From assembly GCA_000175855.1 (NCBI GenBank), contig ACYB01000042.1, positions 1 through 32,000 on the forward strand: a stretch of DNA of 32,000 nucleotides, given 5' to 3'. The translations under genes and the position numbers were made by a program. The DNA comes from Raphidiopsis brookii D9 (GTDB lineage Bacteria > Cyanobacteriota > Cyanobacteriia > Cyanobacteriales > Nostocaceae). Below, one piece after another: positions 6,750 through 28,370 of the stretch. Below the pieces are notes generated by a model that searched no databases, was not told the origin of the DNA, and was given only the letters and a program-made list of their open reading frames with translations. How positions within the stretch are numbered: position 1 is the stretch's first letter; each line of letters begins with the position of its first letter.

Positions 6750-6797
6750 ATGATGTCTAAAAACAATGGTGTCTAAAAACAATGGTGTCTAAAAATA
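6750..6797 (+). repeat. 3 x 16-bp tandem repeat spanning the start codon of the oxidase gene
   Basis: The units are 6750 ATGATGTCTAAAAACA, 6766 ATGGTGTCTAAAAACA and 6782 ATGGTGTCTAAAAATA. Each unit carries an ATG. Confidence 0.95.
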
Positions 6798-8668
6798 AGA
6801 AATCTGTCAATATTATCTCGACTTTTCTGACTTTTCTTCTAGCTATAGCTATCACCTTGTGTGGATTTGGAGAAACAATAGCATTAGCAGCGTGTGGACC
6901 AGAAAAAGAAATGGGCGCATGGGAGACCATACCTCTTCCACCACCATCCAATCGAATGCAGTCCGTTCACACTATCCTTCTCCCTAATGGCAAAGTGCTA
7001 ACTTTGAATGGAAGTAGCTTTCGTACTACTCTCACCAAAGATGAAAATGGTAACAACAAATTTATAGAAGGGGTAGATGTCACAGATGATAAGATAGTTG
7101 ACAATACTGGTTTGCTGGATCCGGTTAGCGGACAATTCAAACGCACTTCCACGCCACCTGCTATGCAATTTGGCGAAAGTAATGATTTATTTTGCTCAGG
7201 TCATGTACAATTAGCCAATGGTAATGTTCTATTTATTGGTGGTACTGGAAGGTATTATCCAGGGGGAGCATTTACAGGTTCCAGACAGGTGAATATTTAT
7301 GACTGGAAAACCGATACTTGGTCTGCTGTAGGGCAATTAAAACAAGGCAGATGGTATCCTAGTTTAATTCCCCTAGCAGATGGCAAGGTAGTAATTTTTT
7401 CTGGTCTGAAATTAGATGCTCCTAACCAGATTAATCCTAGTTTGGAAATCTACGATCCCAGTACCGGGAAAATCTCCTATGTGGATCTGACAAAAATCAA
7501 AAACAGTCCCTTCAATACCAAACTCAAAGATGTTAATAGCTACGATAGCATAGATCTTTATCCTAGAGTATTCCCCACCGCTGATGGTAGATTATTAATT
7601 ACTGGAGATGATGGTGGTATTGGTGGAGTTTTAGTCTCCCAGTCCAGCAAAAAAAAACCTAATTTAATGTCCATCAAAGACAATGGGGATAACAACTTCT
7701 CAGTTAGTTTTGAAGTAGGACCGGAAAAAGGCGAAACATCTAAAGCTTATGGCACTGCTTTACAGGTTCCTAACTCCGAAGATGTTCTACTATTAGGTGG
7801 AATTATTGGTACAAACGATATTAACTTTGGTCGAGGGGGAAAAACAGAAGGATTTCCTGCTGGTTCCAGAGTTGCGGATAGCCTACAACGCTGGGTATCC
7901 CCACAAAAGAGTGGAGAAAAGAATGGTAAATGGGAAATTGTAGATCACTTTCTCGACAAACCCAGAGCCAACCTGGAGGCGGTAATTCTCCCCACTAAGG
8001 AAATTCTAGTAGTTAATGGTGGTGAATATCCAGAGTATAAACCTGTCTATGAACCCTTGTTAATGACTCCTGATGATCAGGTTCCCGGGGGTTATACTAA
8101 GAAAAGTATGAACCCTGCTAAACTGCCTAGATTATATCATAATGGGGCAGTTTTATTACCCGATGCTCGTGTTTTAGTTACTGGTGGTAACGCTAATAGA
8201 GCTTCACTAGAGAAAGATGGAACTGTTCATGTGAATGTGGTGAAAGATCCAACGACATATTATAAGTTTCCTGAACTAAACAAGGAATTTAGTATCGAGG
8301 AGTACTATAAATCTCCCCAAAGTTATTTCTTAGTAGAAGGAGACAGTCAACCCTTCGTTCCCGCAGAAATTTGGCAGGCTGAAATCTTCAGTCCTCCCTA
8401 TTTATTTCAACCTGGGTTACGTCCAGAAATAGTTCAGGTTCCAACAACCCTAAACTATGGTAGAAAGGACGGTATTTTAGTGAAGAATGCTACTGAAAAA
8501 GGCTCTGTTGTCCTGGTGAAATTAGGAGCAGTTACCCATTCCTTTGATTATGGACAAAAGTTAGCGGAACTATCTAATGTGAATGTGCCTAACGTCATGG
8601 GGGATAAATCTTTGATTGTCTTCAAAACTCCCGAAAATGCTAATCTCTACCCCCAGGTTATTACATGA
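6782..8668 (+). CDS. Copper-radical oxidase (glyoxal/galactose-oxidase-like, Kelch + DUF1929), C-terminus frameshifted
   Basis: 628 aa. The active-site context matches the family: LFCSGH (crosslink Cys), GRWYPS (crosslink Tyr), PRLYHNGAVLLPDARVLVTGG (Tyr-His) and VTHSFDYGQK (His). It has an N-terminal signal or lipoprotein-like sequence (LAACG). The family-typical C-terminal strand PPGYYMMFYLNNLGKPSIAKMVKL is encoded in another frame at 8653-8748. Confidence 0.85.
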   Translation: MVSKNKKSVNIISTFLTFLLAIAITLCGFGETIALAACGPEKEMGAWETIPLPPPSNRMQSVHTILLPNGKVLTLNGSSFRTTLTKDENGNNKFIEGVDVTDDKIVDNTGLLDPVSGQFKRTSTPPAMQFGESNDLFCSGHVQLANGNVLFIGGTGRYYPGGAFTGSRQVNIYDWKTDTWSAVGQLKQGRWYPSLIPLADGKVVIFSGLKLDAPNQINPSLEIYDPSTGKISYVDLTKIKNSPFNTKLKDVNSYDSIDLYPRVFPTADGRLLITGDDGGIGGVLVSQSSKKKPNLMSIKDNGDNNFSVSFEVGPEKGETSKAYGTALQVPNSEDVLLLGGIIGTNDINFGRGGKTEGFPAGSRVADSLQRWVSPQKSGEKNGKWEIVDHFLDKPRANLEAVILPTKEILVVNGGEYPEYKPVYEPLLMTPDDQVPGGYTKKSMNPAKLPRLYHNGAVLLPDARVLVTGGNANRASLEKDGTVHVNVVKDPTTYYKFPELNKEFSIEEYYKSPQSYFLVEGDSQPFVPAEIWQAEIFSPPYLFQPGLRPEIVQVPTTLNYGRKDGILVKNATEKGSVVLVKLGAVTHSFDYGQKLAELSNVNVPNVMGDKSLIVFKTPENANLYPQVIT

Positions 8669-8821
8669 TGTTCTATCTGAATAATTTAGGTAAACCTTCC
8701 ATAGCCAAGATGGTCAAACTGGAGAAAACGGGGACTACTCCACAGTAACAACTAAAACATGAGGACACTGTCCTCATAAACAATAAATCAATCAACTGAC
8801 ATCAAAAATCAGCAAAAAATT

Positions 8822-10231
8822 ATGGCACTAACAGAAAAAGATTTGCAAGAATTACCGGAAGATGGCATAGACCCAGAAAACCCAGGGAAATATGAGGTTT
8901 TACTAAAGGAATTACAAGGTAACATTCTCAGGGGACACGGGCGCGATTATAGTGTACACTTGTTTTTGGAATTTAAACCCGATAAACTGGTTGAAGTTAA
9001 GCAATGGATTCAAACCTTTGCCCAAAAGTACTTAAAGTCGGCTAAGAAGCAGTCAGATGAGGCTGTAAATTATCGACAAAACAGTATCAAGGGCGGACTA
9101 TTCACCAACTTTTTCCTCTCTTGCAAGGGTTATGAATATCTGGAAATTGAACCATTTTTGATTCCCTCAGATAGTCCATTCCGTCAGGGAATGAAAAATG
9201 AAAATATTAGAGCTGTTTTGGGTGATCCAAAAGTTGACCAGTGGGAAAGTGGATTTCAACGACAAATTCACGCCTTAATCCTCATTGCAGATGATGACAT
9301 TATTGCTCTGCTTCAGGGTGTGAATCAAATGATGCAAAAACTACGTCTAGTCGCTGATATTGTCCACCGGGAAGATGGCTTTATTTTCAGAAATGAAGCA
9401 GGGCAAATTATAGAACACTTTGGCTTTGTCGATGGTTTGAGTCAACCACTGTTTTTAAAAAGGGATGTTGTCCGTTCCCGTATTCAGGACAGTGGTTTTA
9501 GTAAATGGGACTCTAGAGCTCCCCTTGATATCATTTTAACTAAAGATCCTAATGGCAAAACAGAGGATAGTTACGGTAGTTATTTAGTCTATCGAAAACT
9601 TGAACAAAACGTTAAAAAATTTCGTGGTGAGCAGGAGTCCCTAGCAAAAGCCTTAGAAATTAAAAAGGATCTAGCAGGGGCGTTAGTTGTAGGTCGTTTT
9701 TATGATGGCACTCCCGTCACTCTTACGGATATACCAACTTTTTTACACAATATTACCAACAACTTTAATTACGATGATGATCTTGCTGGTACCAAATGCC
9801 CATTTCATTCTCACGTTCGCAAAATGAATCCTCGTGGGGATACGGGAAACGTAGTATCTTCCTCTGGGTTTGACGAAGCTTTAGCAGTGGAAAGAAAACA
9901 TCGGATTGCCCGCAGGGGAGTGAGTTATGGAAGTAACGATCCCGCACACGACCCAGAAACGGATTCAGGATTATTATTTTTGTGTTTTCAGGCGGATATT
10001 GAAAACCAATTTAATTTCATGCAAACCCGATGGGCGAATGCGACAGGTTTTGTCCAAGCTAATGTTGGACCGGATCCGATCATTGGTCAACCCCAAGGAA
10101 CTCAAAAATGGGTAAAAAACTGGGGACTCTCCGACTCCAAACCGCTTAAGTTTGAACTATGCGTGACTATGAAGGGTGGGGAGTATTTTTTTGCTCCTAG
10201 TCTCAGTTTTCTCCAGAATATTACTGATTGA
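8822..10231 (+). CDS. DyP-type haem peroxidase
   Basis: 469 aa. It carries the GXXDG motif FGFVDGLSQP (distal Asp), the proximal His context CPFHSHVRKMNPR and the distal Arg context RIARRGVSYG. Its size matches the characterised Anabaena DyP (AnaPX). Confidence 0.85.
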   Translation: MALTEKDLQELPEDGIDPENPGKYEVLLKELQGNILRGHGRDYSVHLFLEFKPDKLVEVKQWIQTFAQKYLKSAKKQSDEAVNYRQNSIKGGLFTNFFLSCKGYEYLEIEPFLIPSDSPFRQGMKNENIRAVLGDPKVDQWESGFQRQIHALILIADDDIIALLQGVNQMMQKLRLVADIVHREDGFIFRNEAGQIIEHFGFVDGLSQPLFLKRDVVRSRIQDSGFSKWDSRAPLDIILTKDPNGKTEDSYGSYLVYRKLEQNVKKFRGEQESLAKALEIKKDLAGALVVGRFYDGTPVTLTDIPTFLHNITNNFNYDDDLAGTKCPFHSHVRKMNPRGDTGNVVSSSGFDEALAVERKHRIARRGVSYGSNDPAHDPETDSGLLFLCFQADIENQFNFMQTRWANATGFVQANVGPDPIIGQPQGTQKWVKNWGLSDSKPLKFELCVTMKGGEYFFAPSLSFLQNITD

Positions 10232-10458
10232 GACATTAACTTAGGGGTCAATTATAACCTTCAAATTAAAAATCATGGTCTTCAAAGTGAAAATTATGAA
10301 CACAATCATTAGTGGGTGGTGGGTGGGCAAGGAACGAAATATGTAGGTTATCGATAATCTACGTATAACAATCAAGCTGGTAAAGCTCTTAGTTAATAAC
10401 ACGAAAGTGTTATGTAATGGTTCCGTATATTCCATAGTACACTTTTTGCATTCTAATT

Positions 10459-12975
10459 ATGCGAAGATCAAAGTTCTCGATTTGGCTTACATCCTTTATT
10501 TTTGTGTTTGTGGCCCTGGGTTCAGTCTTTCTAGAACCTAGAGTAGTTTTAGCTGAAAATGCACCTTGTGCACCTGGAGCTTCCTCCTTGTGGGCAACCT
10601 CAGTCAAGGATTTTGTCGGTACTTCAGCCAGCAAAAAATCCAATGTCTATTTCACTGGTGCAGAAGGTATTTTGACAGAGGTGTTTTATCCCACTGTAGA
10701 TAACGTGCAAAATGTTGACTTACAGTTTTTAGTTACCGATGCCAAAAAAACCTGGGGTGACGAAGAACGCAAGCAGGACCATAAGGTTACCCAGGTTAAT
10801 AAACGCTCAATGGTGTGGGAAGTCATAACTACAGATAAAGACAAACGTTGGCAAATCACTAAGAGATTTTTTAGTGATCCCAATCGTCCTACTGTAATTG
10901 AACGAGTTACTTTCGCTACTCTTGAACCGGGAAAAACAGTCCAAGACTATAACCTCTACCTGCTGAATAATCCTTCTATCAACAATTCAGGTAGTGGGAG
11001 TCCTGCTAATGCTTGCAGTGGACCACAAGCAACAGGTGGAGACAACTCTCGCACCCTGTCATCCAATGGTCGAACTTTCCTAGCAGCTTCTGAGCCTAAT
11101 TCTACCTCTTCAGCTGTCACGACCTCACTACCTTGGAAGAAGATTGATGGCACCTTAATGGTATCTAATGGCTTTGTGGGTCAAAGCGATGGTTATACTG
11201 ACCTTTTTGTTGGAGCAGGTGACAAAACCATGAACTGGCATTATAACAATGCTGTTGGTGGTAACGTCGCTCAAATTGGCTGGGTAGATTTTGGCAATAC
11301 CACTGGTGCCAAGATTTCTTTTGATGTAGTCTTGGGATTCGGTAACAGTGAGCAAGCGGCTATAGATGTAGTAAATGCTACTCTAAATACTGATTTGGCT
11401 ACTGTAGAAAGTGATTATACCAAAGAATGGGTAGCCTATACGGATAAACTCAGTGATCAAAATGGATTAGCTGATGATCAGTATTACTTGGCAGCCATGA
11501 ATCTCAAGAGTATTCAAGATAAGACTAATGGTGCCATGGTAGCAGGTCCTGCAACACCTTGGGGGGAAACTAATACTGATAAAAATCAGGGTGGTTATCA
11601 TTTAGTTTGGCCCCGGGACTTGTTTAAATTTGCCAGTTCTTTGATTGCTGCTGGTGACACAGAGTCAGCTAATGAAGCTGTTGATTACTTTTTCAACATT
11701 CAGATGCAGACTAAAACCAGTGATGAGCCTTATTCCCGTCCTGGGCGCTTTCCCCAAAATAACTATGTGGATGGTAGAATATATTGGAATGGCACCCAGA
11801 TGGATCAAACTGGAATGCCCATCATCTTGGCTTGGAAACTTAACCGCACTGATTTGTGGCCCAAAATTAAGTTAGCAGCAGAATATTTAGCTAACTATGG
11901 ACCATACACCCAGCAAGAACGTTGGGAAGAAATGCGTGGTTACTCACCTTCCACCATTGCTGCAGAAATTGCTGGTTTAGTCTGTGCAGCTGACTTGGCT
12001 AAAAAATCCAATGATCCAGAAGCAGCTAAGTACTATCTCAAAAAAGCTGATGAGTGGCGTAATAACGTTGCCAATTGGACTTTTACAACCACTGGTTATC
12101 ACGGTAATAAGCAGTATTATGTACGGATTACTAGTGATAAAAATCCCAATGATGGTGTACGGTTAACCTATGGTAATGGTGGGGGAACCCATGATCAGCG
12201 CTATATCATCGATGGTGGATTTTTAGAGTTGGTACGTTTAGGGGTGATGAGCGCCAATGACTGGACAATTTTAGAAACCATTCCTGAATACGATGAAATT
12301 CTCAAGCAAACCATTACCAAAGATGGTGTAGAAGCTGAAGCTTGGTTCCGCTATAACTACGATGGTTATGGCGAATACAATGACGATCGCAATTTTGATA
12401 CTAGTGGTCGTGGTCGTTTGTGGCCAATTTTCACCGCTGAACGTGGTATTTATGAGATTGCCAAATCTGGTGCGGGATGTGCTGGTCAAAAATATCTCAA
12501 AGATCTGAAAGTCATGTCTTCAGAAGCAGGATTTATTCCTGAGCAAGTTTGGAATAACAGCACTACCATTACAGGTTGGGAAACAATTACCCCTGCATCT
12601 CATCTTCCTGGTACTTCTACACGCTCTATACGTCCTCTTAGCTGGGCTATGGGTGAGTATATTAACCTGATTGCAGCCGTTAAAGATGGTAAAAGTGATG
12701 CTCCGGATGTGGTTTGTCAACGTTATGCTTGTGATAAACCCCAAACTGATGTGACTTTCACAGCTAAAAATGCGACTACAAAACCAGGTGAGAATGTGTA
12801 TTTGGTTGGTAATAGTCCCTTACTAGGCAATTGGGAACCCACTTCCGGTGTTAAGCTTTCTCCTGTTAGTTATCCTACTTGGAGTGTTAAGGTTTCTTTA
12901 CCTGCGTCTACTAGCTTTGAGTACAAGTTTGTTAAACTTGATGCTAGTGGCAACAAAAATCTGGGAAGAAGCTGA
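10459..12975 (+). CDS. Secreted GH15 glucoamylase/glucodextranase with C-terminal CBM20 starch-binding domain (3' end frameshifted)
   Basis: 838 aa. The signal peptide is FVFVALGSVFLEPRVVLA. GH15 motifs are GGYHLVWPRDLF, QERWEEMRGYSPST and RLWPIFTAERG. The CBM20 region is VTFTAKNATTKPGENVYLVGNSPLLGNWEP...FEYKFVKL. The CBM20 ending (K)IWEEAEKHTLETPATGE... continues in another frame to 13033. Confidence 0.85.
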   Translation: MRRSKFSIWLTSFIFVFVALGSVFLEPRVVLAENAPCAPGASSLWATSVKDFVGTSASKKSNVYFTGAEGILTEVFYPTVDNVQNVDLQFLVTDAKKTWGDEERKQDHKVTQVNKRSMVWEVITTDKDKRWQITKRFFSDPNRPTVIERVTFATLEPGKTVQDYNLYLLNNPSINNSGSGSPANACSGPQATGGDNSRTLSSNGRTFLAASEPNSTSSAVTTSLPWKKIDGTLMVSNGFVGQSDGYTDLFVGAGDKTMNWHYNNAVGGNVAQIGWVDFGNTTGAKISFDVVLGFGNSEQAAIDVVNATLNTDLATVESDYTKEWVAYTDKLSDQNGLADDQYYLAAMNLKSIQDKTNGAMVAGPATPWGETNTDKNQGGYHLVWPRDLFKFASSLIAAGDTESANEAVDYFFNIQMQTKTSDEPYSRPGRFPQNNYVDGRIYWNGTQMDQTGMPIILAWKLNRTDLWPKIKLAAEYLANYGPYTQQERWEEMRGYSPSTIAAEIAGLVCAADLAKKSNDPEAAKYYLKKADEWRNNVANWTFTTTGYHGNKQYYVRITSDKNPNDGVRLTYGNGGGTHDQRYIIDGGFLELVRLGVMSANDWTILETIPEYDEILKQTITKDGVEAEAWFRYNYDGYGEYNDDRNFDTSGRGRLWPIFTAERGIYEIAKSGAGCAGQKYLKDLKVMSSEAGFIPEQVWNNSTTITGWETITPASHLPGTSTRSIRPLSWAMGEYINLIAAVKDGKSDAPDVVCQRYACDKPQTDVTFTAKNATTKPGENVYLVGNSPLLGNWEPTSGVKLSPVSYPTWSVKVSLPASTSFEYKFVKLDASGNKNLGRS

Positions 12976-13101: not shown

Positions 13102-13132
13102 CTTCCCACTTCTAGGGGTGGGAAGGTTTTTT
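13102..13132 (+). terminator. Rho-independent terminator downstream of the glucoamylase gene
   Basis: The stem CTTCCCAC (13102-13109) pairs with GTGGGAAG (13118-13125) across an 8-nt loop and is followed by GTTTTTT. Confidence 0.7.
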
Positions 13133-13289
13133 ACCGTTTTAAAAAAAAGGGAGTATAAATATCCTGAGAATGGGGATTGAGATAAGGATGTTGTAACTGG
13201 ATGTTTTGTAATGCAAACTGTTCAAAGATAGCACTTATGCGATCCTCTGGAGTATGATTACCCGCTAGCCAGGCTTCAATTAATCCATT
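13133..13289. repeat. 157-bp direct repeat, copy 1 (orphan copy of the 3' end of the HopA1-like gene)
   Basis: It is identical to 14048-14204 except for 2 substitutions (T/A at the T/A-run junction and A/G at 13242). It corresponds to the last ~50 codons plus stop and 7 nt of 3' flank of the gene at 14055-15152. Confidence 0.95.
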
Positions 13290-13432
13290 TCTTGTCTCTT
13301 CTGAATATCCTCTGTGGGTTTCGTAATTATCAATAAATTGTCTACCACAGTTTTTACAAATATAATTTTGTTTGCTTTTTTATGACCATTTTTATTAATC
13401 TTGCTTGACTTACATTCTGGACACTGAATCAT
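13290..13432 (-). pseudogene. IS1-family transposase (InsA-like zinc-ribbon) N-terminal remnant
   Basis: The minus strand from ATG 13432 reads MIQCPECKSSKINKNGHKK, and after a 1-nt frame slip reads KQNYICKNCGRQFIDNYETHRGYSEETRN. This is the CPxC...CxxC ribbon typical of cyanobacterial IS1 transposases. It is truncated at 13290, where it abuts repeat copy 1. Confidence 0.65.
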
Positions 13433-13493: not shown

Positions 13494-14036
13494 TTCAGCA
13501 ACGCCCGTTACTTTTTACGTAGGCGATCAGACCAAGTTGCTGATGGTGCAGGTCAATACCATATTGTTCCATCGATGGTTTTTCAGCCCACGGGTACTGA
13601 TCCCTTTGATCCGGATTCCTACAACCTAGAGAAGACTATCTTGAAAGAAGTAGCTGAAGAGCTATTTAATTATGAAGAAGGTGACTTTAATCCCTTATCC
13701 TACCCTGAAATCGCTGACCTAAAAACCCTATTAGACCAGGGTGGTGCAACCCTTAAGATTACAGGGATCGGGATGGATTTACTCTGTTTGCGACCTGAGT
13801 TTTTGACCTTACTGTATATTCAGGATTCAAGCTGGTTTGAACGTCATGGGGGATCTATATGTTTCTCTGAGCATGAGTATGATTACGATCCATCTAGCAG
13901 GAAAAGTTGGCGATCTATCCTTGATGGTGAACCTTTTCAATCAGAGGGAGAATTAGCACCACATCGTTGCGTAGCGACCGGGGCAATTAGTGCCCTCCTG
14001 GCTAGGCAATATTTATTACAACATCTTGTCGTCTAG
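13494..14036 (+). pseudogene. 5'-truncated ORF of unknown function
   Basis: The frame is open from 13494 with no start codon until M at 13575. The upstream in-frame residues (..GAGQYHIVPSMVFQPTG..) read like protein interior. The ORF starts where the IS1 remnant's outer end should lie. No family was recognised. Confidence 0.35.
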
Positions 14037-14047
14037 CTAGGTCCTAG

Positions 14048-14204
14048 ACCGTTTTTAAAAAAAGGGAGTATAAATATCCTGAGAATGGGGATTGAGATAA
14101 GGATGTTGTAACTGGATGTTTTGTAATGCAAACTGTTCAAAGATAGCACTTATGCGGTCCTCTGGAGTATGATTACCCGCTAGCCAGGCTTCAATTAATC
14201 CATT
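14048..14204. repeat. 157-bp direct repeat, copy 2 (native 3' end of the HopA1-like gene)
   Basis: See copy 1 at 13133-13289. Confidence 0.95.
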
Positions 14205-15152
14205 AGCAATAATTTGACAGCGGTGAGTACCGAAGCTCTCTTGGTCGCCAAATTTCTGCTCTGGTTCTTCAGCACAACCCAATCCAGGTGCTAGTATTTT
14301 AGTAAACATGGGAACCGGTTGCTGAAAGTATAATTCATTTTCTGCATAAATTTTTTGCAACACTGGCCAGACGGTCTGATGTTGACTTTTATTAAAATAG
14401 AGGACAGCTGAATCGTAACGTTGATAATCGCTGGGTTCATATAATGCTTTAAAAGAGAATGAAATATCAAGATCATTAAGATATTCCGTTACACTTTCCA
14501 TCACTGTTGGTGCTCCTTCAGCTGCTATATTAAAGTAAATGCGCGTAATCTCCAGGTTGTTTTGAGTTCCCGCATTAGCTACGGCCATATAAAAGCCATT
14601 TTGTACCAGATTTTTCGGCATTTTAACGGATATAGTCTTTCCAGCGCTGAGACTTTGAGTTGTTGGTGATAAATGTATATTGGGGTCAACATGCAGTGTT
14701 AATCCGTTCTTATAGACTGCTAAGGTACCGTCTGTCTCTTCCTTGACAATCTCCCAATTGGGACTCCAGTAACCTTTACCTTTGTTCCCATTGTGTAGAC
14801 GATCATAAAATTCTAGATCTACCCCAAATAAACTATTGTTTTCAAGCTGTTTATTTAATTTACTGCTGTTTACGTTCTCATCTGTACTTGATTTATTGTT
14901 TGTGTTAACGTTATAATAGTTGCTGTATATAAAGTTACGCAATTGAAATTTTAAATGTTGCTGCTGTATCTGTAAAGGTAGCTTTTGAAACTGAGAAATT
15001 ACAGAATCTGGCATGGTTGAATGTTTGTAGCGTGTATGTTTAATAGAGTAATAAGACTCAATTTGAATGTGACTAACCATATCCTGTAGAGAATCTTGCA
15101 ACTGCTCAGGAAGTTGTGTCAACTGAAATTTGCGAGAATTTAATAATTGCAT
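14055..15152 (-). CDS. HopA1-family-like protein, putative phospho-Ser/Thr lyase partner of the adjacent kinase
   Basis: 365 aa from ATG 15152, which is preceded by AGGTGA 9 nt upstream. The ORF track extends it to a TTG at 15245, overlapping the kinase. The blocks YWSPNWEIVKEETDGTLAVYKNGLTLHV, ITRIYFNIAAEGAP, YQRYDSAVLYFNK, MFTKILAPGLGCAEEP and FGTHRC match my recollection of cyanobacterial proteins annotated as T3SS effector HopA1 family, which usually sit beside a phosphotransferase. No HMM was run. Confidence 0.55.
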   Translation of the reverse strand: MQLLNSRKFQLTQLPEQLQDSLQDMVSHIQIESYYSIKHTRYKHSTMPDSVISQFQKLPLQIQQQHLKFQLRNFIYSNYYNVNTNNKSSTDENVNSSKLNKQLENNSLFGVDLEFYDRLHNGNKGKGYWSPNWEIVKEETDGTLAVYKNGLTLHVDPNIHLSPTTQSLSAGKTISVKMPKNLVQNGFYMAVANAGTQNNLEITRIYFNIAAEGAPTVMESVTEYLNDLDISFSFKALYEPSDYQRYDSAVLYFNKSQHQTVWPVLQKIYAENELYFQQPVPMFTKILAPGLGCAEEPEQKFGDQESFGTHRCQIIANGLIEAWLAGNHTPEDRISAIFEQFALQNIQLQHPYLNPHSQDIYTPFF

Positions 15153-15213: not shown

Positions 15214-16380
15214 TTAATTAGATCTAAAATTAATGTCCTCCCCAAAAATTGTGCCGAGGGATGCTTGAGGACGACACAACAGAGTTTTGGCTAACTGAAG
15301 AATAGCAATGCCAGAATTACCAAAAGTCTTTTCGTGTTGCAGTTTAGCTTGGATGGACGTAATTAATGAAAAGCCAGTAAACTGTACAACTAATTGCAAA
15401 AAATTAGGTCGACGTTCTAAAATCTCCGGAAAGCTATTTAAATAACCACCTACTAATTCTGCTATGGAGGGTTGTATTAAGTGCAAAGGAATAGCTGCTA
15501 ATCGTAGAGATTCTTCGATTGCTATGGTTCGACTGGTTACCATACTATATAGCCAAATTTGTAAATAACTAGCAATTATGGAACCTAAATCACTTGCTGG
15601 GTCTCCCCAATTACCACGTTCCCAATCAATGAGGCGAATTATTTTTCCCCCTCCATTATTACCGGATGATTGATTTATTGTAGATTCCCAATTTAAAGAC
15701 AGGAGAATATTATTGAGTTTCAGGTCATTATGGGTTAAACAACAAGCATGATAAGATTGACCCAATTGGGAAATTGCTTTGCCTAAATTGTCATAACGCT
15801 GATACAAGGAAAAGAATTTTAAACCATCTGCAGTCAGATGACCAAATAGTTCTGGTGTAATTCTAGGTATTCCCTCATGTAAGTGAGAATTTTTATTTTT
15901 TCTGGTGACCTCAGGATTTTGGAAGAAATTTTCATATTCTGGACTATCTAAAGTCAACCGATGAATTGATGCTAATATTTCCCCTAGGGAGCGAGCAATT
16001 GTCATGGGAAATAAATTTTCTCGAGCATAAAACTCACCTATATCCCGATATTCTCTGAGATAGTTGAAGACAAGTATGGAATTGGCTTGATCAAAATGTA
16101 TTGCTTCTGATAGAGATGAACGGAGATGATTTACTGCTGAAAATGTCTGAAAAAAATTATGAACTTGCCATTCATCTATAAACTCACCACTGGTTTTACC
16201 CTCTCGATTAATACGTTCTTGTTTCACCAATAATTGACGGTTATCAGGCAAAGTAAGTAATAGATTAAAATTTTTAGCGGATTTGAGATCAATCTTGCTG
16301 GCTGATTGCTCTTCTTGAGTGCAAATTTTTTGAGAAATCAGGTAAGGAAAAACGTTTTCAGAACTTAAAACAAATGGCAT
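15214..16380 (-). CDS. Aminoglycoside-phosphotransferase-like (protein-kinase-fold) kinase
   Basis: 388 aa. It has the catalytic loop CCLTHNDLKLNNILL (HxDxxxxN), the metal-binding LIDWERGNWGDPASDLG (IDWE, the APH/choline-kinase equivalent of DFG) and the candidate ATP-binding Lys in LLVKQE. It starts 17 nt after the stop of the upstream peptide gene. Confidence 0.75.
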   Translation of the reverse strand: MPFVLSSENVFPYLISQKICTQEEQSASKIDLKSAKNFNLLLTLPDNRQLLVKQERINREGKTSGEFIDEWQVHNFFQTFSAVNHLRSSLSEAIHFDQANSILVFNYLREYRDIGEFYARENLFPMTIARSLGEILASIHRLTLDSPEYENFFQNPEVTRKNKNSHLHEGIPRITPELFGHLTADGLKFFSLYQRYDNLGKAISQLGQSYHACCLTHNDLKLNNILLSLNWESTINQSSGNNGGGKIIRLIDWERGNWGDPASDLGSIIASYLQIWLYSMVTSRTIAIEESLRLAAIPLHLIQPSIAELVGGYLNSFPEILERRPNFLQLVVQFTGFSLITSIQAKLQHEKTFGNSGIAILQLAKTLLCRPQASLGTIFGEDINFRSN

Positions 16381-16397
16381 GACTTTCAGATGATATG

Positions 16398-16607
16398 TTA
16401 TTCTCGAAAAGAATATGCTAGAAAAGAAATGGCATTAATAGCTGTAATAACAACCATAAACTCAAGGGTTTTGATGCCAAAATTGAACAGTCCATCAAAA
16501 TAAGGATTTTCACCACCAAAAACAGCCTGAGAATTATGATTATTCAGATCATTAATGAATGTTTCCGAGTTAATAGGCGCCAGATCATTAATAATAATCT
16601 TAGCCAT
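16398..16607 (-). CDS. Double-glycine-leader peptide D (divergent, hydrophobic core)
   Basis: 69 aa: MAKIIINDLAPINSETFINDLNNHNSQAVFGG|ENPYFDGLFNFGIKTLEFMVVITAINAISFLAYSFRE. The core tail ISFLAYSF aligns with IAYLAKSY of peptides A-C. The gene is tightly coupled to the kinase gene. Confidence 0.55.
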   Translation of the reverse strand: MAKIIINDLAPINSETFINDLNNHNSQAVFGGENPYFDGLFNFGIKTLEFMVVITAINAISFLAYSFRE

Positions 16608-16704: not shown

Positions 16705-16938
16705 TTAGTAGTTGTAGTCACTGTAAGACTTAGCTAAATAAGCAATATTACCAATACCATAGGTATTGACAAATGCTTCTGCTAATTTGGTGAATACGGA
16801 CATATCACTGAAATCATAATATCCACCACCATGGACAGAAATAGAATTGATATCACTCATTTCATTCAGAAAACTTTCCGAATCTTGAAACAGTTCAGAA
16901 CCATTGGCTTGCAATTGATCCAGTTTGATACTTGCCAT
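16705..16938 (-). CDS. Double-glycine-leader precursor peptide A
   Basis: 77 aa: MASIKLDQLQANGSELFQDSESFLNEMSDINSISVHGG|GYYDFSDMSVFTKLAEAFVNTYGIGNIAYLAKSYSDYNY. It has a strong SD, GGAGGAAATTATG, and is one of 3 tandem paralogues. Confidence 0.75.
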   Translation of the reverse strand: MASIKLDQLQANGSELFQDSESFLNEMSDINSISVHGGGYYDFSDMSVFTKLAEAFVNTYGIGNIAYLAKSYSDYNY

Positions 16939-17015
16939 AATTTCCTCCCCAAGGATTTGTTATTGACTTACTACGAGTGAACCAGAAGTGACCAATAAAT
17001 GATCTGGTAATTTTC

Positions 17016-17252
17016 TTACCAATAATAATCATGATCACTATAAGATTTTGCTAAATAAGCAATATTACCAATACCGTAAGTATTGACAAATGCTTCTCCT
17101 AATTTGGTGAATACGGATATATCACCGAAATCAGATCCACCACCATAAACAGAGATAGAATTGACATCGCTCATTTCATTGAGAAAACTTTCGGAATCTT
17201 GGAATAATTCAGAACCAGTGGTTTCCAGTTGACCAAGCTTAATACTTGCCAT
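17016..17252 (-). CDS. Double-glycine-leader precursor peptide B
   Basis: 78 aa: MASIKLGQLETTGSELFQDSESFLNEMSDVNSISVYGG|GSDFGDISVFTKLGEAFVNTYGIGNIAYLAKSYSDHDYYW. It has the same SD, GGAGGAAATTATG. Confidence 0.75.
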   Translation of the reverse strand: MASIKLGQLETTGSELFQDSESFLNEMSDVNSISVYGGGSDFGDISVFTKLGEAFVNTYGIGNIAYLAKSYSDHDYYW

Positions 17253-17315
17253 AATTTCCTCCTCAAAGACTGATTGCTAGTGATAGACATTGCCAAAATC
17301 AACAGTGTTTTAGTT

Positions 17316-17546
17316 TTATACTCCACTGCTATAAGACTTAGCCAAATAGGCAATATGAGCAATACCGTAGGCATTGACAAATGCTTCTGCTAGTTTGGTG
17401 AATATGGACATGTCACTTACAGTGGAGTTGAATCCACCATGGATAGAAATAGAGTTGATATCGCTCATATCATTGAGAAAACTTTCGGAATCTTGGAACA
17501 GTTCAGAACCAGTACTTTGCAATTGATCCAATTTGATACTTGCCAT
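17316..17546 (-). CDS. Double-glycine-leader precursor peptide C
   Basis: 76 aa: MASIKLDQLQSTGSELFQDSESFLNDMSDINSISIHGG|FNSTVSDMSIFTKLAEAFVNAYGIAHIAYLAKSYSSGV. It has the same SD, GGAGGAAATTATG. Confidence 0.75.
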   Translation of the reverse strand: MASIKLDQLQSTGSELFQDSESFLNDMSDINSISIHGGFNSTVSDMSIFTKLAEAFVNAYGIAHIAYLAKSYSSGV

Positions 17547-17700: not shown

Positions 17701-17852
17701 TCGCTGGTTCCATATCAATCTCTGATTAGATTAGCGATAATTTCTCGAATGATGATCAATCTGTTTTTAAAAACAGCTACCTGATATATAATAATAAATC
17801 CCCCTTCAGCAAGGGAGGAATAATAAGAATTAGTAAAAACTTAACTCAAAGG

Positions 17853-18089
17853 TTAGAAGGTGACTGAATCTCTCAATTCATCTAGGGTGTCATCAATCTC
17901 GGCTCTCCATCTTTCTAGGTTGTCGTTGACACGTCCTAAAACTTGGGAAATATCAACACTCTCGACCGAATTAGGATTTCTCCTTCTTCGTCTTACACCT
18001 CCTTTGATATTAACCATTTCGCCAGGAGTAACTTCTTGCAAAAGGTCGCCATCACCATTGGGGTATAGATCACTGATTTTTATGTCCAT
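17853..18089 (-). CDS. Double-glycine-leader peptide E (poly-Arg, highly charged core)
   Basis: 78 aa: MDIKISDLYPNGDGDLLQEVTPGEMVNIKGG|VRRRRRNPNSVESVDISQVLGRVNDNLERWRAEIDDTLDELRDSVTF. It has a canonical GG-type leader (L..E....E...I.GG) and the SD GAGGTG 8 nt upstream. Confidence 0.6.
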   Translation of the reverse strand: MDIKISDLYPNGDGDLLQEVTPGEMVNIKGGVRRRRRNPNSVESVDISQVLGRVNDNLERWRAEIDDTLDELRDSVTF

Positions 18090-18304: not shown

Positions 18305-19822
18305 TCAGTTGATTTTTGATCCTGTGTCTTGAGATCCGGGAATGGTGATATCTATCGGTGTAATTTTACCTGCTAACTGGGTTAATGGTGGTTGAATGGC
18401 ACCTTGATTTCCCACAACTAACGTAACTAAATTCTCTGGTTTGAGATATTTTTGAGCCACTCTTTGCACATCTGTAGCTGTGGTTTTTGTGACCGCTTTT
18501 TGATAACGAAACAGAAAGTCAGCAGGATAACCATAATATTCATAACGCATTAACCGTGACAGGGTTTGACCTGGGTCCTGAAAATTGAATACAAAAGAAT
18601 TTAGGGTGGACTCCTTAGCATACCTTAATTCTTTCGCTGTTATTGGTTGTTTTTGAATGCGCTCAATCTCTAATTGAATAGACTTTATAAACTGTACTGT
18701 AGCATCGGAACGGGTTTGTCCACCAGCAATAAACATACCCGGATAATCAAAACGGGGATTCCATGAGCCATATACAGAGTAGGCTAAACCTTGGCGCGAT
18801 CGCACTTCATTAAATAGTCTTCCTCCGAACCCATTTAGCACGCCATTCATTACATCTAATGCTGCATAATCTGGACTATTGAATTTTCCGCCCAAATGTC
18901 CCATTAAAATGCTGCTCTGTGTCAGTTGTGGTTGATTGACAAAGAATAACCCACTTAAATTAGCCTGCTGCACTGGTGGTAATTGGGTTTTAGCAATATT
19001 GAGATTAGGTTGCCAATCACCCAGTTTAGTCTGAATCAGAGAGCGCATTTTTTTCGGGTTAAAATCCCCCACAATTCCCAGGATTATGTTATTGGGATGG
19101 AAATATTTCCGATAGAAGTTAATCACATCTTCTCGCTGGATTTTATCGAGAGTTGCATATTCTGTAGTGCGTGCATAGGGACTATTTTGACCATAGATTA
19201 ATTTGCGAAACTCCCGACTGGCAATATTGTCAGAGTCATCATTGCGACGGGTAATACTTCCCTTAATTTGAGTTTTAATCAATTCCAACTTTTCCGGAGC
19301 AAAAGCTGGTTCTCGTAAGACTTCTGTAAACAACCCGAACACAGTTTCTAAATCTTCAGTTAAACTTTCAAAACTGGCAGTTCCAGCACTTTCACTAATG
19401 TCAGTTTCTACGGATGCTGCTCTTTGTTCCAAAATTTCATTTAGTTGATCCGGGGAATGTTTGGCAGTCCCCCCAATGCGCATCAGTGAACCTACAATGT
19501 CACCTAAACCGACTTTATCTCCTGCTTCCCAACGACTACCAGTCTTAATTAGGGTTGTTCCACTAACTAGGGGTAATTCATGATCTTCCATTAAATAGAC
19601 GACTAAACCGTTGTTTAATTGGAATCGCTCATACTTTGGCAGTTTAATTCCCGGTAAAGAATTGAATTGTAAGTCGGTATAATGCTTGGCTGCTGCTGTT
19701 GCTACCCTGGAGAAATTCAAGGTCAATACTAAGGCAATTACTAAGGCAAAAAATAATTGCCAAGTTTTACCCAATTTGGGGAAAATATTGCGTGAAAATT
19801 TCAATTTTTTACTCCTGACCAT
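18305..19822 (-). CDS. M16-family peptidase, non-catalytic-type subunit (zinc motif lost), signal peptide
   Basis: 505 aa with an M16 two-domain architecture. At the position of HxxEH it reads GLGDIVGSLMRIGGT. The N-terminal signal is FALVIALVLTLNFSRVATAAA. Confidence 0.8.
   Translation of the reverse strand: MVRSKKLKFSRNIFPKLGKTWQLFFALVIALVLTLNFSRVATAAAKHYTDLQFNSLPGIKLPKYERFQLNNGLVVYLMEDHELPLVSGTTLIKTGSRWEAGDKVGLGDIVGSLMRIGGTAKHSPDQLNEILEQRAASVETDISESAGTASFESLTEDLETVFGLFTEVLREPAFAPEKLELIKTQIKGSITRRNDDSDNIASREFRKLIYGQNSPYARTTEYATLDKIQREDVINFYRKYFHPNNIILGIVGDFNPKKMRSLIQTKLGDWQPNLNIAKTQLPPVQQANLSGLFFVNQPQLTQSSILMGHLGGKFNSPDYAALDVMNGVLNGFGGRLFNEVRSRQGLAYSVYGSWNPRFDYPGMFIAGGQTRSDATVQFIKSIQLEIERIQKQPITAKELRYAKESTLNSFVFNFQDPGQTLSRLMRYEYYGYPADFLFRYQKAVTKTTATDVQRVAQKYLKPENLVTLVVGNQGAIQPPLTQLAGKITPIDITIPGSQDTGSKIN
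18796..18803. repeat. HIP1 palindrome GCGATCGC (one of 11 copies in the window)
   Basis: Exact GCGATCGC starts at 1800, 18796, 20132, 21296, 22040, 24352, 24723, 25515, 27381, 29631 and 30497. This is the hallmark highly iterated palindrome of many cyanobacteria. Confidence 0.9.
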
Positions 19823-21544: not shown

Positions 21545-22171
21545 ATGCCAGTTTCTCATTATTCCTCTCCTTCAGAAGCTCAAACCCGTAGCCGCATTCT
21601 TATAGCAGCACTGCGTTTATTTGCTTCCGGGGGATTTGATGGCACTACCACCCGTGACTTGGCCCACGCTGCAGGAGTTGCTGAGGGTACACTCTTTCGT
21701 CATTTTGCCAATAAAAAGGCAATTCTGGTAGAGGTAGCGACCAATGGTTGGGTAGAAATTCTCACGGACCTACTGACAGAATTGAGTGAAATGGGTAGTT
21801 ATAAAGCCATAGCCCAAGTTATGCGTCGCAGAATGTGGAACATGCAAAAGAATGTTGATTTGATGCGAGTTTGTTTCATGGAGGTGCAGTTTCATCCAGA
21901 TTTGCAGGATCGCATCCAAACTGAAGTGATTGATAAAATGACCAGTGTTACAGAAGCATTCTTCCAAACCGCTATGGATAGGGGTATTTATCGTCAAATG
22001 GATGCTAAATTGGTTGCTAAAGTGTTTTTAGGAATGTTTGCGATCGCAGGTTTTTCTCATCAAACCCTAATTGATCCCCATGGGTCTCCCCAGGAAATGC
22101 AACAAATGGCTGAGGGTTTAGCAGATATATTCTTAAATGGGGTTTTGGTTAAGGAATTCACAATTCAATAA
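21545..22171 (+). CDS. TetR/AcrR-family transcriptional regulator
   Basis: 208 aa. The N-terminal HTH is TRSRILIAALRLFASGGFDGTTTRDLAHAAGVAEGTLFRHFANKKAIL. It is divergent from the M16 pair. Confidence 0.85.
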   Translation: MPVSHYSSPSEAQTRSRILIAALRLFASGGFDGTTTRDLAHAAGVAEGTLFRHFANKKAILVEVATNGWVEILTDLLTELSEMGSYKAIAQVMRRRMWNMQKNVDLMRVCFMEVQFHPDLQDRIQTEVIDKMTSVTEAFFQTAMDRGIYRQMDAKLVAKVFLGMFAIAGFSHQTLIDPHGSPQEMQQMAEGLADIFLNGVLVKEFTIQ

Positions 22172-26387: not shown

Positions 26388-28175
26388 TTAAACCCCATCC
26401 TCACCTGTTGGTTCTTCTGTGGGAGGAGTAGGAGTTGTAGTAGGAACGGGATTTTCCACAGGAGGAGGAGTGGGAATGGAATTTTCCACAGGAGGAGGAG
26501 TAGGAGTTGTAGTGGGAATGGGATTTTCCACAGGAGGAGTAGGAGTTGTAGTAGGAATGGTGGTTTTAGGAGGAGTGGGAGTTGTAGTAGGAATGGTGGT
26601 TCTAGGAGGAATAGGAGTTGTAGTAGGAATGGTAGTTCTAGGAGGAATGGTGGTTCTAAGAGGAATAGGATCTCGTTTAATTGGAGCTTCTAAAGCGACA
26701 GATAAACTATAGTTACTTTGAGGAACTGTTGTAGACAAAGTCAGTTGGATAGTTAACCTCCCCCTACTTGTTAAGACTCCCTCATAGCTAGTAACTTTTT
26801 GAGCATCAATGCTAAGGGGTTGACCGTCAGCAGTAAGAATAGTTAATAAAACGCCACTTTCCTCATTAAGTCCCACGGTGAGCTTTTGTCCTGGACTACC
26901 TCTAAAACTGTATTCAATTACTTCCCCAAATTTGATTATTCCTTCTTCATTAGCATTATTAGATGAATCCCATGCTAAACTCCGTAGTTCCGTTTTGCTA
27001 GGTGTGAGTGTCAATGTAGAATCGGGTGTAGATCTGGGAATTACAGGGGAAGGAAAATTCTGGGGTGTGGTGGATAATCGGGGAAATAACCCTTGATCAC
27101 GAAGGTAATTAACTAGGGACCAAGAACCAAATCCCGCCAAAATAACTACAAAACTACCAATAGTCACCACGGCCAAAGTATTGTCCAAAATCGAACTATT
27201 AGTATGAGTAGTATGAGTAGTGTGAGGTGATATTACTGGTTCAGGTGAGTTAGTTGGGGTAGGAGATGGATGACTAATAGCAATAGTGGGTAAATAGGAT
27301 AGATTAGGATCCGGAGGGTTTAAGGGACTTGAGACTTCTAAATTATTTAAATCAAGAATAACTTCCTTAGCATTTTGATAGCGATCGCCTGGGATACGAT
27401 TTAGCATGCGATTTATTACCTGAGCGAACTTAGGACTAACTTGTACCCAGTGCTGCCATTTCCAAACAAAAGTAGTTTCATCAAATAGATCCGCTGGTTC
27501 TTTTCCGGTGAGGAGAACTATAGCCGTAACAGCCAGTGCATACAAATCACTATTGGGATAAGCTTTTCCGGTTTGGACTTGTTCTATGGGGGAATACCCC
27601 GGTTTACCTACTGTAGTAGATTGATGGACAGAATAAGTTGATAACCTAGTTGCTACTTCTTTAACAACACCAAAATCAATTAACACAGGTTTTTGGTCTG
27701 TGCTGCGTAAGATTAAATTATCGGGGGAAATATCCCGGTGAATGATCTTAGCTTTGTGAATATACTCTAAAACCGGTAATAGAGATTGTAATAAATATAG
27801 TATTTCCGCTTCAGTAAAACTTTGACCTTGAGTACGACGTTCATTTAAGATGGTATGGTAGGTTTTCCCTCCCACGAAATCCTGGACTAGGAACAACCGT
27901 TGGTCTTGGGCAAATTTTTCTCGGAACTTAGGAATTTGGGGGTGATCAATTTGATATAGTATGGATGCTTCCCGATCAAACAATTCTTGAGCTTTTTTAC
28001 CCTTGTATGAATCTGGGTCTAAAATAACCAATTCCTTGATAGCGCAAAGTTCGTTAAAACGTCCTTGGTCTTCTGCTAGATAGGTTCTACCAAATCCCCC
28101 CTGTCCCAAAAGACGAATAATATGGTAGCGATTTTGGAGAATAGTTCCAAGGTTAATGGGTAATGGCATAATCAT
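26388..28175 (-). CDS. Membrane-anchored Ser/Thr protein kinase with Pro/Thr-rich repeat tail
   Basis: Hanks kinase motifs are GQGGFGRTYLA, CAIKEL, HRDISPDNLIL, DFGVVK and GKPGYSPIEQ. One TM helix is present (AVVTIGSFVVILAGFGSWSLV). The C-terminal tail is (P)RTTIPTTTPTPP / VENPIPTTTPTPP repeats. The start is at ATG 28175 or 28169 rather than 28202. Confidence 0.88.
   Translation of the reverse strand: MIMPLPINLGTILQNRYHIIRLLGQGGFGRTYLAEDQGRFNELCAIKELVILDPDSYKGKKAQELFDREASILYQIDHPQIPKFREKFAQDQRLFLVQDFVGGKTYHTILNERRTQGQSFTEAEILYLLQSLLPVLEYIHKAKIIHRDISPDNLILRSTDQKPVLIDFGVVKEVATRLSTYSVHQSTTVGKPGYSPIEQVQTGKAYPNSDLYALAVTAIVLLTGKEPADLFDETTFVWKWQHWVQVSPKFAQVINRMLNRIPGDRYQNAKEVILDLNNLEVSSPLNPPDPNLSYLPTIAISHPSPTPTNSPEPVISPHTTHTTHTNSSILDNTLAVVTIGSFVVILAGFGSWSLVNYLRDQGLFPRLSTTPQNFPSPVIPRSTPDSTLTLTPSKTELRSLAWDSSNNANEEGIIKFGEVIEYSFRGSPGQKLTVGLNEESGVLLTILTADGQPLSIDAQKVTSYEGVLTSRGRLTIQLTLSTTVPQSNYSLSVALEAPIKRDPIPLRTTIPPRTTIPTTTPIPPRTTIPTTTPTPPKTTIPTTTPTPPVENPIPTTTPTPPPVENSIPTPPPVENPVPTTTPTPPTEEPTGEDGV
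26410..26680. repeat. Imperfect ~39-42-bp tandem repeats encoding the Pro/Thr-rich kinase tail
   Basis: The plus strand shows reiterated GGAGGAGT(A/G)GGAGTTGTAGT(A/G)GGAATGG... units. These create the spurious Gly/Val-rich antisense ORF at 26419-26712. Confidence 0.85.
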
Positions 28176-28370
28176 AGTAGTTGAAATTAAAATTAAAAGC
28201 AAAATATTTAGAGGGTTAAATAAAGCATAAACTAGATCACAGGAATATCAAACCTAAAAATGCTTGCTGGGGATATAGTTACAAAAGGAACTCATAAAGG
28301 TTCCCAGAAAGCAAAAATCCTCCAGCTTCCAGTTGTGGGAATTTTTACCTTAATTATCTACAAATCTACA

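Follow-up and report, generated by a model that had tools for sequence, protein, structure and literature searches.

Three tandem double-glycine precursor genes beside a kinase and a HopA1-type lyase in Raphidiopsis brookii D9 are under purifying selection and are candidate substrates of a LanK/LanY-type dehydratase

A 32,000-nucleotide stretch of the cyanobacterium Raphidiopsis brookii D9 (contig ACYB01000042.1, positions 1 to 32,000; hereafter the window) carries three consecutive repeat units, here named pepB1 to pepB3, which a sequence-only reading of this DNA had described as triplicated precursor-peptide genes with a double-glycine (GG) leader. The locus raises two questions: are the three units maintained as genes, and what becomes of their peptides? 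We find that pepB1-3 are real genes under purifying selection, and the sequences of the peptides and of the adjacent enzymes indicate that their products are most likely Cys-free dehydro- (or phospho-) peptides. The three open reading frames (ORFs), each with an ATG start, are:

16705..16938, minus strand: pepB1, 77 aa precursor, tail DYNY
17016..17252, minus strand: pepB2, 78 aa precursor, tail DHDYYW
17316..17546, minus strand: pepB3, 76 aa precursor, tail SGV

The start-to-start spacing of the pepB genes is 314 and 294 nt, and a repeat search recovered the same spacing in two three-copy families of direct repeats, one of 139 nt (82-86% identity) and one of 126 nt (71-84% identity); the ORF list and this search bear out the three-unit tandem repeat with a 294/314 period that had been proposed. 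Each start codon is preceded by GGAGGAAATTATG (coding strand, i.e. the reverse complement), with an identical strong Shine-Dalgarno sequence in all three copies, in agreement with the identical start context noted before. Reading of the peptides also confirmed the near-identical leaders and the conserved central core as quoted, together with the differences just after the GG (GYYDFSDM, GSDFGDI and FNSTVSDM) and in the tails. The assignment to precursor-type peptides with a GG leader is supported by all three sequences, in which the motif ..S(V/I)(H/Y)GG occupies residues 34-38. The array does comprise three genes, but they lie on the minus strand, and two flanking peptide genes, pepA and pepC, belong to the unit too. 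None of the three pepB peptides contains a Cys, and no Pfam or NCBIfam model matches them.

We applied a Nei-Gojobori analysis to six genes, pepB1-3 and their three positional orthologues in Cylindrospermopsis raciborskii, which has the same three genes (76, 78 and 77 aa) at the same 294/314 spacing. Synonymous divergence (dS) is 0.67-0.75 among the paralogues and 0.34-0.43 between positional orthologues, and the ratio of non-synonymous to synonymous divergence (omega) is 0.05-0.12 in the leader and 0.05-0.33 in the conserved core. On the C. raciborskii locus (L001), the orthologue of pepB1 lies at 10001-10234 (dS 0.43, omega 0.12), that of pepB2 at 9687-9923 (dS 0.34) and that of pepB3 at 9393-9623 (dS 0.43). 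Thus, the triplication is old and each copy is maintained by selection; a recent duplication is ruled out by the paralogue dS of ~0.7 and by the presence of the same three copies in C. raciborskii. The variable ends had been taken as a sign of diversification. They do differ between paralogues, but not freely: the SGV and DHDYYW tails are identical in the orthologues, and DYNY differs from DYEY by one residue, at a dS of ~0.4. The ends are therefore paralogue-specific and conserved, not drifting.

The pepB1 search returned 325 database homologues conserved over the full length, with 58-99% identity (99% to the closest, P0001, and 90% to C. raciborskii P0002). All are from Nostocales (Cylindrospermopsis, Sphaerospermopsis, Anabaena, Dolichospermum, Trichormus, Nostoc, Halotia and Fortiea), often with several on one contig. 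These homologues and the purifying selection rule out a chance repeat. A non-coding or decaying tandem duplication, whose repeats would not be translated, could draw on the lack of Pfam and NCBIfam matches and on one RNA-seq study that reported an orthologue in Nostoc PCC 7120 as not expressed. It is excluded by the selection data, as omega stays at 0.05-0.3 while dS reaches 0.75, and it also conflicts with frames and tail sequences intact between species, the Shine-Dalgarno sequence shared by the three copies and the full-length homologues; we give it practically no weight.

Residue conservation, computed over 251 non-redundant pepB sequences, separates a nearly invariant leader, M-A-x-I-x-L-S-E-L ... 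G-S-E-L-F-Q-D-S-E-S-F-L-N-(E/D)-L ... G-G, from a core with conserved positions K51, E54, V57, Y60, I62, A69, K70, S71, F/Y72 and S73. G37 is invariant and G38 is present in 222/251 sequences. Judged by eye, most family members, reading D-V-D-S-I-S-G-G, fit the double-glycine rule (hydrophobic at -4 and -7, acidic at -8); the window copies have a two-residue insertion (..NSISVHGG), and only their -4 residue (V/I) fits. The conserved Ser/Thr residues had been proposed as the modification targets. Mapped on the homologues, the two Ser of KSYS (S71 in 211/251, S73 in 205/251) and the Ser of SDxS hold family-wide, but the Thr of FTKL and NT is often replaced by Glu or Val; S44 and S47 are also conserved, in closer relatives. 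K51 (197/251), K70 (203/251) and H64 (120/251) are shared by many members. The segment after the GG is rich in G/Y/S/D and variable in length, and the tail (median 6 aa) is Y/G/S/D-rich and ends with Tyr in 115 of 196 sequences. The core is mostly anionic, with a family median net charge of -1 (0 to -3 in the window copies), and only 2 of 249 pepB cores contain a Cys. An AlphaFold2 model of pepB1, built on an 82-sequence alignment, predicts a leader helix (6-31) and a core helix (46-73) with a mean confidence (pLDDT) of only 55 and carries no tertiary information; the pepB profile gave only a chance-level internalin match in the PDB (E 0.009).

How widely is this leader distributed? Against 1.84 billion representative proteins, the pepB profile matched 786 clusters (50% identity) at E <= 1e-3 and 29 at E <= 1e-10. 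The top ~30 matches span leader and core, and the rest share the leader only, with unrelated cores. The leader thus defines a large family with hypervariable cores, and pepB1-3 are part of the conserved-core branch of this family. Cys occurs in 36 of 150 leader-only matches. Note that P0274-P0394 show the leader M-A-x-I-K-I-S-E-L-x-P-A-G-S-E-L-F-Q-D-S-E-S-F-L-N-E-L...GG to be common to hundreds of 50%-identity clusters whose cores are unrelated; many of these cores consist of Ser/Thr/Val/Asn-rich repeats such as NANTxGN, and some have Cys.

Downstream of the array lie the two enzyme genes that would act on such peptides:

15214..16380, minus strand: APH-fold peptide kinase of LanK/LxmK type (Pfam APH 4e-08)
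14055..15152, minus strand: HopA1-family phospho-Ser/Thr lyase of LanY/LxmY type (Pfam HopA1 PF17914 2.5e-67, over the full model); start assigned to the ATG at 15152, so that the protein has 365 aa like its orthologues

The best NCBIfam match of the kinase is the class V lanthionine synthetase subunit LxmK (1.6e-21, 76.8 bits; cutoff 315 bits), and its ATP-binding K53, the H217, D219 and N224 of the HxDxxxxN loop and the metal-binding D252 are invariant in 85 orthologues. The lyase matches the LxmY chain of the lexapeptide dehydratase LxmKY (9dk1_B, E 3.8e-08), and its H39, R204, K235, R245 and Y252 are likewise invariant in 85 orthologues. By motif and spacing, not by direct alignment to CaoY, these residues are equivalent to H57, R187, K219, R229 and Y236 of CaoY, the cacaoidin lyase: the K-to-R (+10) and R-to-Y (+7) intervals are those of CaoY K219/R229/Y236, and R204 precedes K235 by 31 residues, compared with 32 in CaoY. 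Mutagenesis has shown that R187, K219, R229 and H57 of CaoY matter for phosphate elimination (PMC9486802). Given the invariance of their catalytic residues, both enzymes very probably have activity; analogy would make them the two halves of a heterodimeric Ser/Thr dehydratase, with the leader bound via the kinase.

To what extent is this arrangement conserved? A HopA1 protein query with one genome per species yielded 282 relatives, from which the best 80 loci were kept; with the window and four loci found via the peptides, this gave 85 sources, on which ORFs were mapped by phmmer. The recurring order is TetR< M16a> M16b> pepA> pepB(x1-9)> pepC> kinase> HopA1> [HetP>] [PPIase] HlyD< PCAT< [HetP<], where PPIase is a peptidyl-prolyl isomerase and PCAT a peptidase-containing ATP-binding cassette (ABC) transporter. 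The pepB genes stand directly upstream of kinase-HopA1 in 81 of the 85 sources; of the remaining four, L011 and L013 have runs of N over the pepB stretch, and the contigs of L015 and L023 begin within the cluster. The apparent absence of pepB from these four is thus rejected. In the two Anabaena loci, the N runs (L011 ~8130-8440, L013 ~8120-8270) extend from right after MANIKLSELNAAGSEL or MASIKLSQ to just before SLAKSFS. The sequence-only reading had named homologues unlinked to the kinase and lyase as the finding that would speak against it; the opposite is seen, with the pepB-kinase-HopA1 order kept in the 85 loci wherever sequence is present. The pepB copy number ranges from one to nine, three or four being commonest, among the 58 loci with an upstream boundary, and the triplication itself is ordinary for the family. 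Overall, the cluster is conserved clade-wide in Nostocales and occurs in almost every heterocyst-forming cyanobacterium. In the window, the minus-strand operon order is M16a-M16b-pepA-pepB3-pepB2-pepB1-pepC-kinase-lyase, with a divergent TetR gene; besides the genes already given, its members and a hairpin are:

16398..16607, minus strand: pepC, 69 aa ORF, GG-leader peptide (..AVFGG|ENPYF..)
17800..17817, minus strand: terminator-like hairpin between pepA and the pepB array (pattern scan, weak)
17853..18089, minus strand: pepA, 78 aa ORF, GG-leader peptide (..MVNIKGG|VRRRRRN..)
18305..19822, minus strand: M16b, non-catalytic M16 peptidase subunit (Pfam M16 and M16_C), without HxxEH, with an N-terminal signal-like segment
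19846..21393, minus strand: M16a, catalytic M16 peptidase subunit (Pfam), with an HFLEH zinc motif and an N-terminal signal-like segment, in conserved synteny
21545..22171, plus strand: divergent TetR-family regulator (Pfam TetR_N 1.3e-16), at the same position in 40 loci

The core of pepA runs from a basic patch through a Ser/Thr-rich stretch to an amphipathic helix with a conserved Trp, and that of pepC is a more hydrophobic version of the pepB core pattern (K-x-L-E-F ... A-I-x-A-I-S-x-L-x-x-S-F). Homologues of pepA occur between M16b and pepB in 48/85 loci and those of pepC at the same position as here in 57/85; in the window, pepC ends 17 nt before the kinase start. Cys is found in 0/36 pepA cores and 1/60 pepC cores.

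When every ORF of 90 aa or longer in the 10 kb to each side of the lyase was clustered over the 85 loci, the families recurred as follows: HopA1 and the kinase 85/85 each, PPIase 70/85, HlyD 58/85, PCAT 54/85, a helix-turn-helix protein 49/85, M16 42/85, TetR 40/85 and HetP 38/85. Locus mapping placed PCAT within 10 kb in 60/85 loci and HlyD in 59/85, and in many genomes, C. raciborskii included, a HetP paralogue comes next after the lyase (38-44/85 depending on the method). The exporter of the relatives combines cyclic nucleotide (cNMP)-binding, C39, ABC membrane and ATPase domains. Within the same 10 kb, no cyclase (LanX), decarboxylase (LanD), reductase or methyltransferase gene is conserved, nor is an immunity-like small gene.

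A class V lanthipeptide is rejected as the product because of the Cys-free cores and the lack of a conserved cyclase gene; the analogy with that class holds up to dehydration and ends there. Like the LxmK-LxmY and CaoK-CaoY systems (lexapeptide, cacaoidin), the window cluster has a split kinase and HopA1-type lyase, the latter with the invariant CaoY-equivalent residues and the match to structure 9DK1; unlike class V clusters, it has no Cys in the cores and no LanX, LanD or reductase, and its kinase is only distantly related to LxmK. Its leader is of double-glycine type, and the actinobacterial (type-A) precursors form a sequence group separate from the cyanobacterial ones (PMC9486802). The thioamitide pathways offer a second comparison, as their TsaC/TsaD (TvaC/TvaD) phosphotransferase and HopA1-like protein are needed for Ser/Thr dehydration in a pathway for a peptide that is made by the ribosome and modified after translation (RiPP) (PMC8153245); unlike these clusters, ours has no YcaO/TfuA, decarboxylase or other tailoring genes, and the precursors are unrelated.

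We come to the reading that we favour, with a probability of roughly 0.6: the adjacent LanK/LanY-type dehydratase acts on pepB1-3 under guidance of the leader, and the peptides are dehydrated, most likely at AKS(Y/F)S and/or SDxS, without lanthionine formation, then cut at the GG and exported, with a possible later action of the M16 peptidases. In this scheme, the leader of ~38 aa (MASIKLxQL..GSELFQDSESFLNEMSD..GG) would dock on the kinase through its helix; the kinase would phosphorylate Ser/Thr of the core, and the HopA1-type lyase would eliminate the phosphate to yield dehydroalanine (Dha) or dehydrobutyrine. The Ser residues kept throughout the family, in AKS(Y/F)S and SDxS, are the best candidate sites, and the dehydro residues would not be converted to lanthionine, as the cores have no Cys and the cluster no cyclase gene. 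A C39-peptidase ABC exporter with its HlyD partner, encoded beside the cluster in most of the relatives and at another place in this genome, would cut the leader after the GG, and the exported M16 heterodimer may trim the product. The three copies would supply one common, conserved helical core, each with its own conserved extensions at the N- and C-terminus. The genes, their selection and synteny, the enzyme family and the catalytic residues are observed directly; that pepB is the substrate, and the sites, export and biological role, are predicted from them.

Several points weigh against this reading. The kinase falls far short of the LxmK family cutoff and its sequence gives no match in the PDB; the cores, with their strong conservation and mostly anionic charge, differ from the hypervariable cores typical of RiPPs; the 32 kb window contains no C39 ABC exporter; and a literature search found no modified product reported for any member of the cyanobacterial family. 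pepA, which is Ser/Thr-rich and has an RRRR patch, may be the real or main kinase substrate instead of pepB. Near-identical paralogues can lose multi-mapping reads, which bears on the expression of asl1933, the PCC 7120 gene concerned. The single statement located on the expression of a PCC 7120 orthologue describes this gene as "not expressed" after nitrogen step-down (PMC4365693).

The main rival holds that pepB is exported unmodified, as class II bacteriocin-like peptides or as matrix/adhesion peptides resembling EbfG, while the kinase and lyase act on pepA, pepC or another protein. A GG leader and the nearby PCAT/HlyD of the relatives would be enough for export, the helical core with its small-xxx-small motif (YGIGxI) and the hydrophobic pepC partner recall multi-peptide bacteriocins, and the tails, rich in Tyr and Gly, resemble low-complexity material. 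In Synechococcus, EbfG1-4 function without modification in biofilm formation (PMC4997328, PMC12267927). We nevertheless consider this rival unlikely: the kinase-HopA1 gene order is invariant over the 85 loci, with pepC so close to the kinase, the leader type is common to the 786 peptide clusters, and Family 1A, which has the same GG leader, is defined by adjacency to HopA1-phosphotransferase pairs (PMC8153245). The class II bacteriocin traits (a cationic amphiphilic peptide, an immunity gene, a patchy distribution) are not found in the pepB family, with its anionic cores, its lack of a conserved immunity-like gene and its clade-wide, not strain-specific, distribution. Less probable still is a phosphopeptide end product, or a non-thiol step after dehydration (for example Lys or His adding to Dha, or the tail being removed by hydrolysis at Dha) with K51, K70 and H64 taking part. 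These three residues are conserved next to conserved Ser, AKS(Y/F)S lies exactly at the border between conserved core and variable tail, and in the cacaoidin system the kinase alone gives stable phosphopeptides (PMC9486802). No enzyme for such a step is conserved nearby, however, and the invariant catalytic residues of the lyase indicate that the phosphate is probably eliminated; moreover, this idea is a refinement of the dehydration reading, not an alternative to it.

Is the cluster new? Wang, Fewer & Sivonen (2011) described "group II bacteriocin gene clusters" with M16, APH_ChoK-like, HetP-like, long C39 transporter and rotamase genes, and listed for Nostoc PCC 7120 asl1930 (HetP), an unannotated CDS (73 aa), asl1933, asl1934 and asl1935 (77 aa each, pI 3.97), asl1936 (81 aa), asl1937 (83 aa) and asl1938 (85 aa) (PMC3140520). 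This list matches the order pepC, five pepB, pepA, and size, charge and neighbours agree with Table S3 of that study, as a comparison of listings and not of sequences. Eyles et al. (2021) found HopA1 proteins paired with a phosphotransferase in 96% of cases and defined "HopA1 Family 1A" (570 peptides in 183 clusters, cyanobacteria only), with a conserved GG leader and variable cores without conserved Ser, Thr or Cys (PMC8153245). Both studies predicted the family to be RiPP-like. The cyanobacterial "type-B" candidate precursors of van der Donk and co-workers were selected for containing Cys (PMC9486802). The window cluster is thus a new member of a family catalogued twice by genome mining, whose product chemistry is uncharacterised. 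With Family 1A and group II it shares the APH-like phosphotransferase and HopA1 pair and several non-identical precursors with a conserved GG leader, in clusters that also hold M16 peptidases, a HetP-like gene, a long cNMP-C39 ABC exporter, HlyD and PPIase and are confined to cyanobacteria. It differs in that the HetP, HlyD and PCAT genes of this genome are not adjacent to it, and in the conserved core of the pepB1-3 sub-family (~29 of 786 clusters full-length) compared with the highly variable cores described by Eyles; the Cylindrospermopsis/Raphidiopsis copies were not listed by Wang 2011. The EbfG1-4/PteB system of Synechococcus elongatus PCC 7942 likewise has tandem small GG genes, C39 ABC export and a role in biofilms, not as an antibiotic (PMC4997328, PMC12267927); the likeness is by description, and the descriptions of its cluster that were consulted mention no kinase or lyase (PMC12267927). 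The cyanobacterial family is the largest kinase/HopA1 cluster group from genome mining (the Family 1A figures of 2021) and is still without a known product. Its conserved-core sub-family, in which the substrate has no Cys, the modifying enzymes number only two and few Ser are conserved, is a tractable entry point that would show what a LanK/LanY dehydratase makes without an available thiol.

That the cluster is syntenic across the whole clade, that its conserved core is anionic and that it has no immunity gene suggest that the peptides are not strain-level antibiotics. Could the whole cluster instead be a peptide-signal or envelope module of heterocyst-formers? The pepA, pepB and pepC peptides, dehydrated by the kinase and lyase, would be exported by the HetC-like cNMP-C39 ABC transporter, processed by the periplasmic M16 pair and act on heterocyst commitment or maturation, as the missing substrates of that transporter family; we regard this proposal as doubtful. 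Members of the family occur essentially in Nostocales only; asl1936/37 appear in a list of Nostocales signature proteins, and asl1933 is listed among gene families specific to heterocyst-formers (PMC4365693). The paralogue of the commitment regulator HetP that comes after the lyase is asl1930 in PCC 7120, where its deletion advances heterocyst commitment, and the exporter of the relatives has the same architecture as HetC. From locus-tag order next to asl1938, we hypothesize that the PCC 7120 M16 pair is All1940/All1939, that is, Abp1/Abp2. Inactivation of Abp2 abolishes hepA/hepC expression and heterocyst maturation, and an abp2 insertion would be polar on the downstream peptide, kinase and lyase genes. 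Note that the role of Abp1/Abp2 as "DNA-binding proteins" fits poorly with an exported peptidase. If the links to HetP, a HetC-like exporter and probably Abp1/Abp2 are true, the cluster would supply candidate peptide substrates for this exporter family in heterocyst development.

Upstream of the peptide genes, the M16 pair looks like an exported M16B heterodimer; M16b is 98% identical to its C. raciborskii KL1 counterpart and lies upstream of pepA in 42 loci. Across Nostocales, the M16 proteins are 71-81% identical, compared with 51-68% for the lyase. No inverted repeat or operator was found in the TetR-M16a intergenic region, and an Rfam gathering scan of the whole window returned no RNA family. 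As the promoter and terminator scan of the region gave site counts not above shuffle expectation, we claim no transcription-unit boundaries.

The window region after HopA1 is rearranged. A 166-nt direct repeat (96% identity) occurs at 13124-13289 and 14039-14204, 915 nt apart, the second copy comprising the last ~50 HopA1 codons and a further 16 nt. The interval between them holds a 153 aa ORF of no assigned family (13575-14036, plus strand) and a 50 aa ORF (13280-13432, minus strand) whose start, MIQCPECKSSKINKNG, may resemble an IS1 InsA-type zinc finger. Since relatives carry a HetP gene at this position, an insertion or rearrangement at the 166-nt repeats looks to have displaced it. Past the rearranged end of the cluster, positions 6782-12975 encode a galactose-oxidase-like protein, a DyP-type peroxidase and a GH15 glucodextranase with a starch-binding domain, genes that are not syntenic with the cluster in other genomes. 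On the other side, 26388-28202 (minus strand) encodes a Ser/Thr protein kinase with a Pro/Thr-rich repeat (TTIPTTTPTPP..., PPVENxIPT...) that makes up its C-terminal third. Finally, five Dolichospermum/Anabaena loci (L013, L014, L015, L020 and L023) carry one or two extra GG-leader-like genes of ~85-90 aa between HopA1 and HlyD on the opposite strand (e.g. MATIIISDL...TVYDGIN...DNKIFxLDFS), which phmmer groups with pepC via the leader only.

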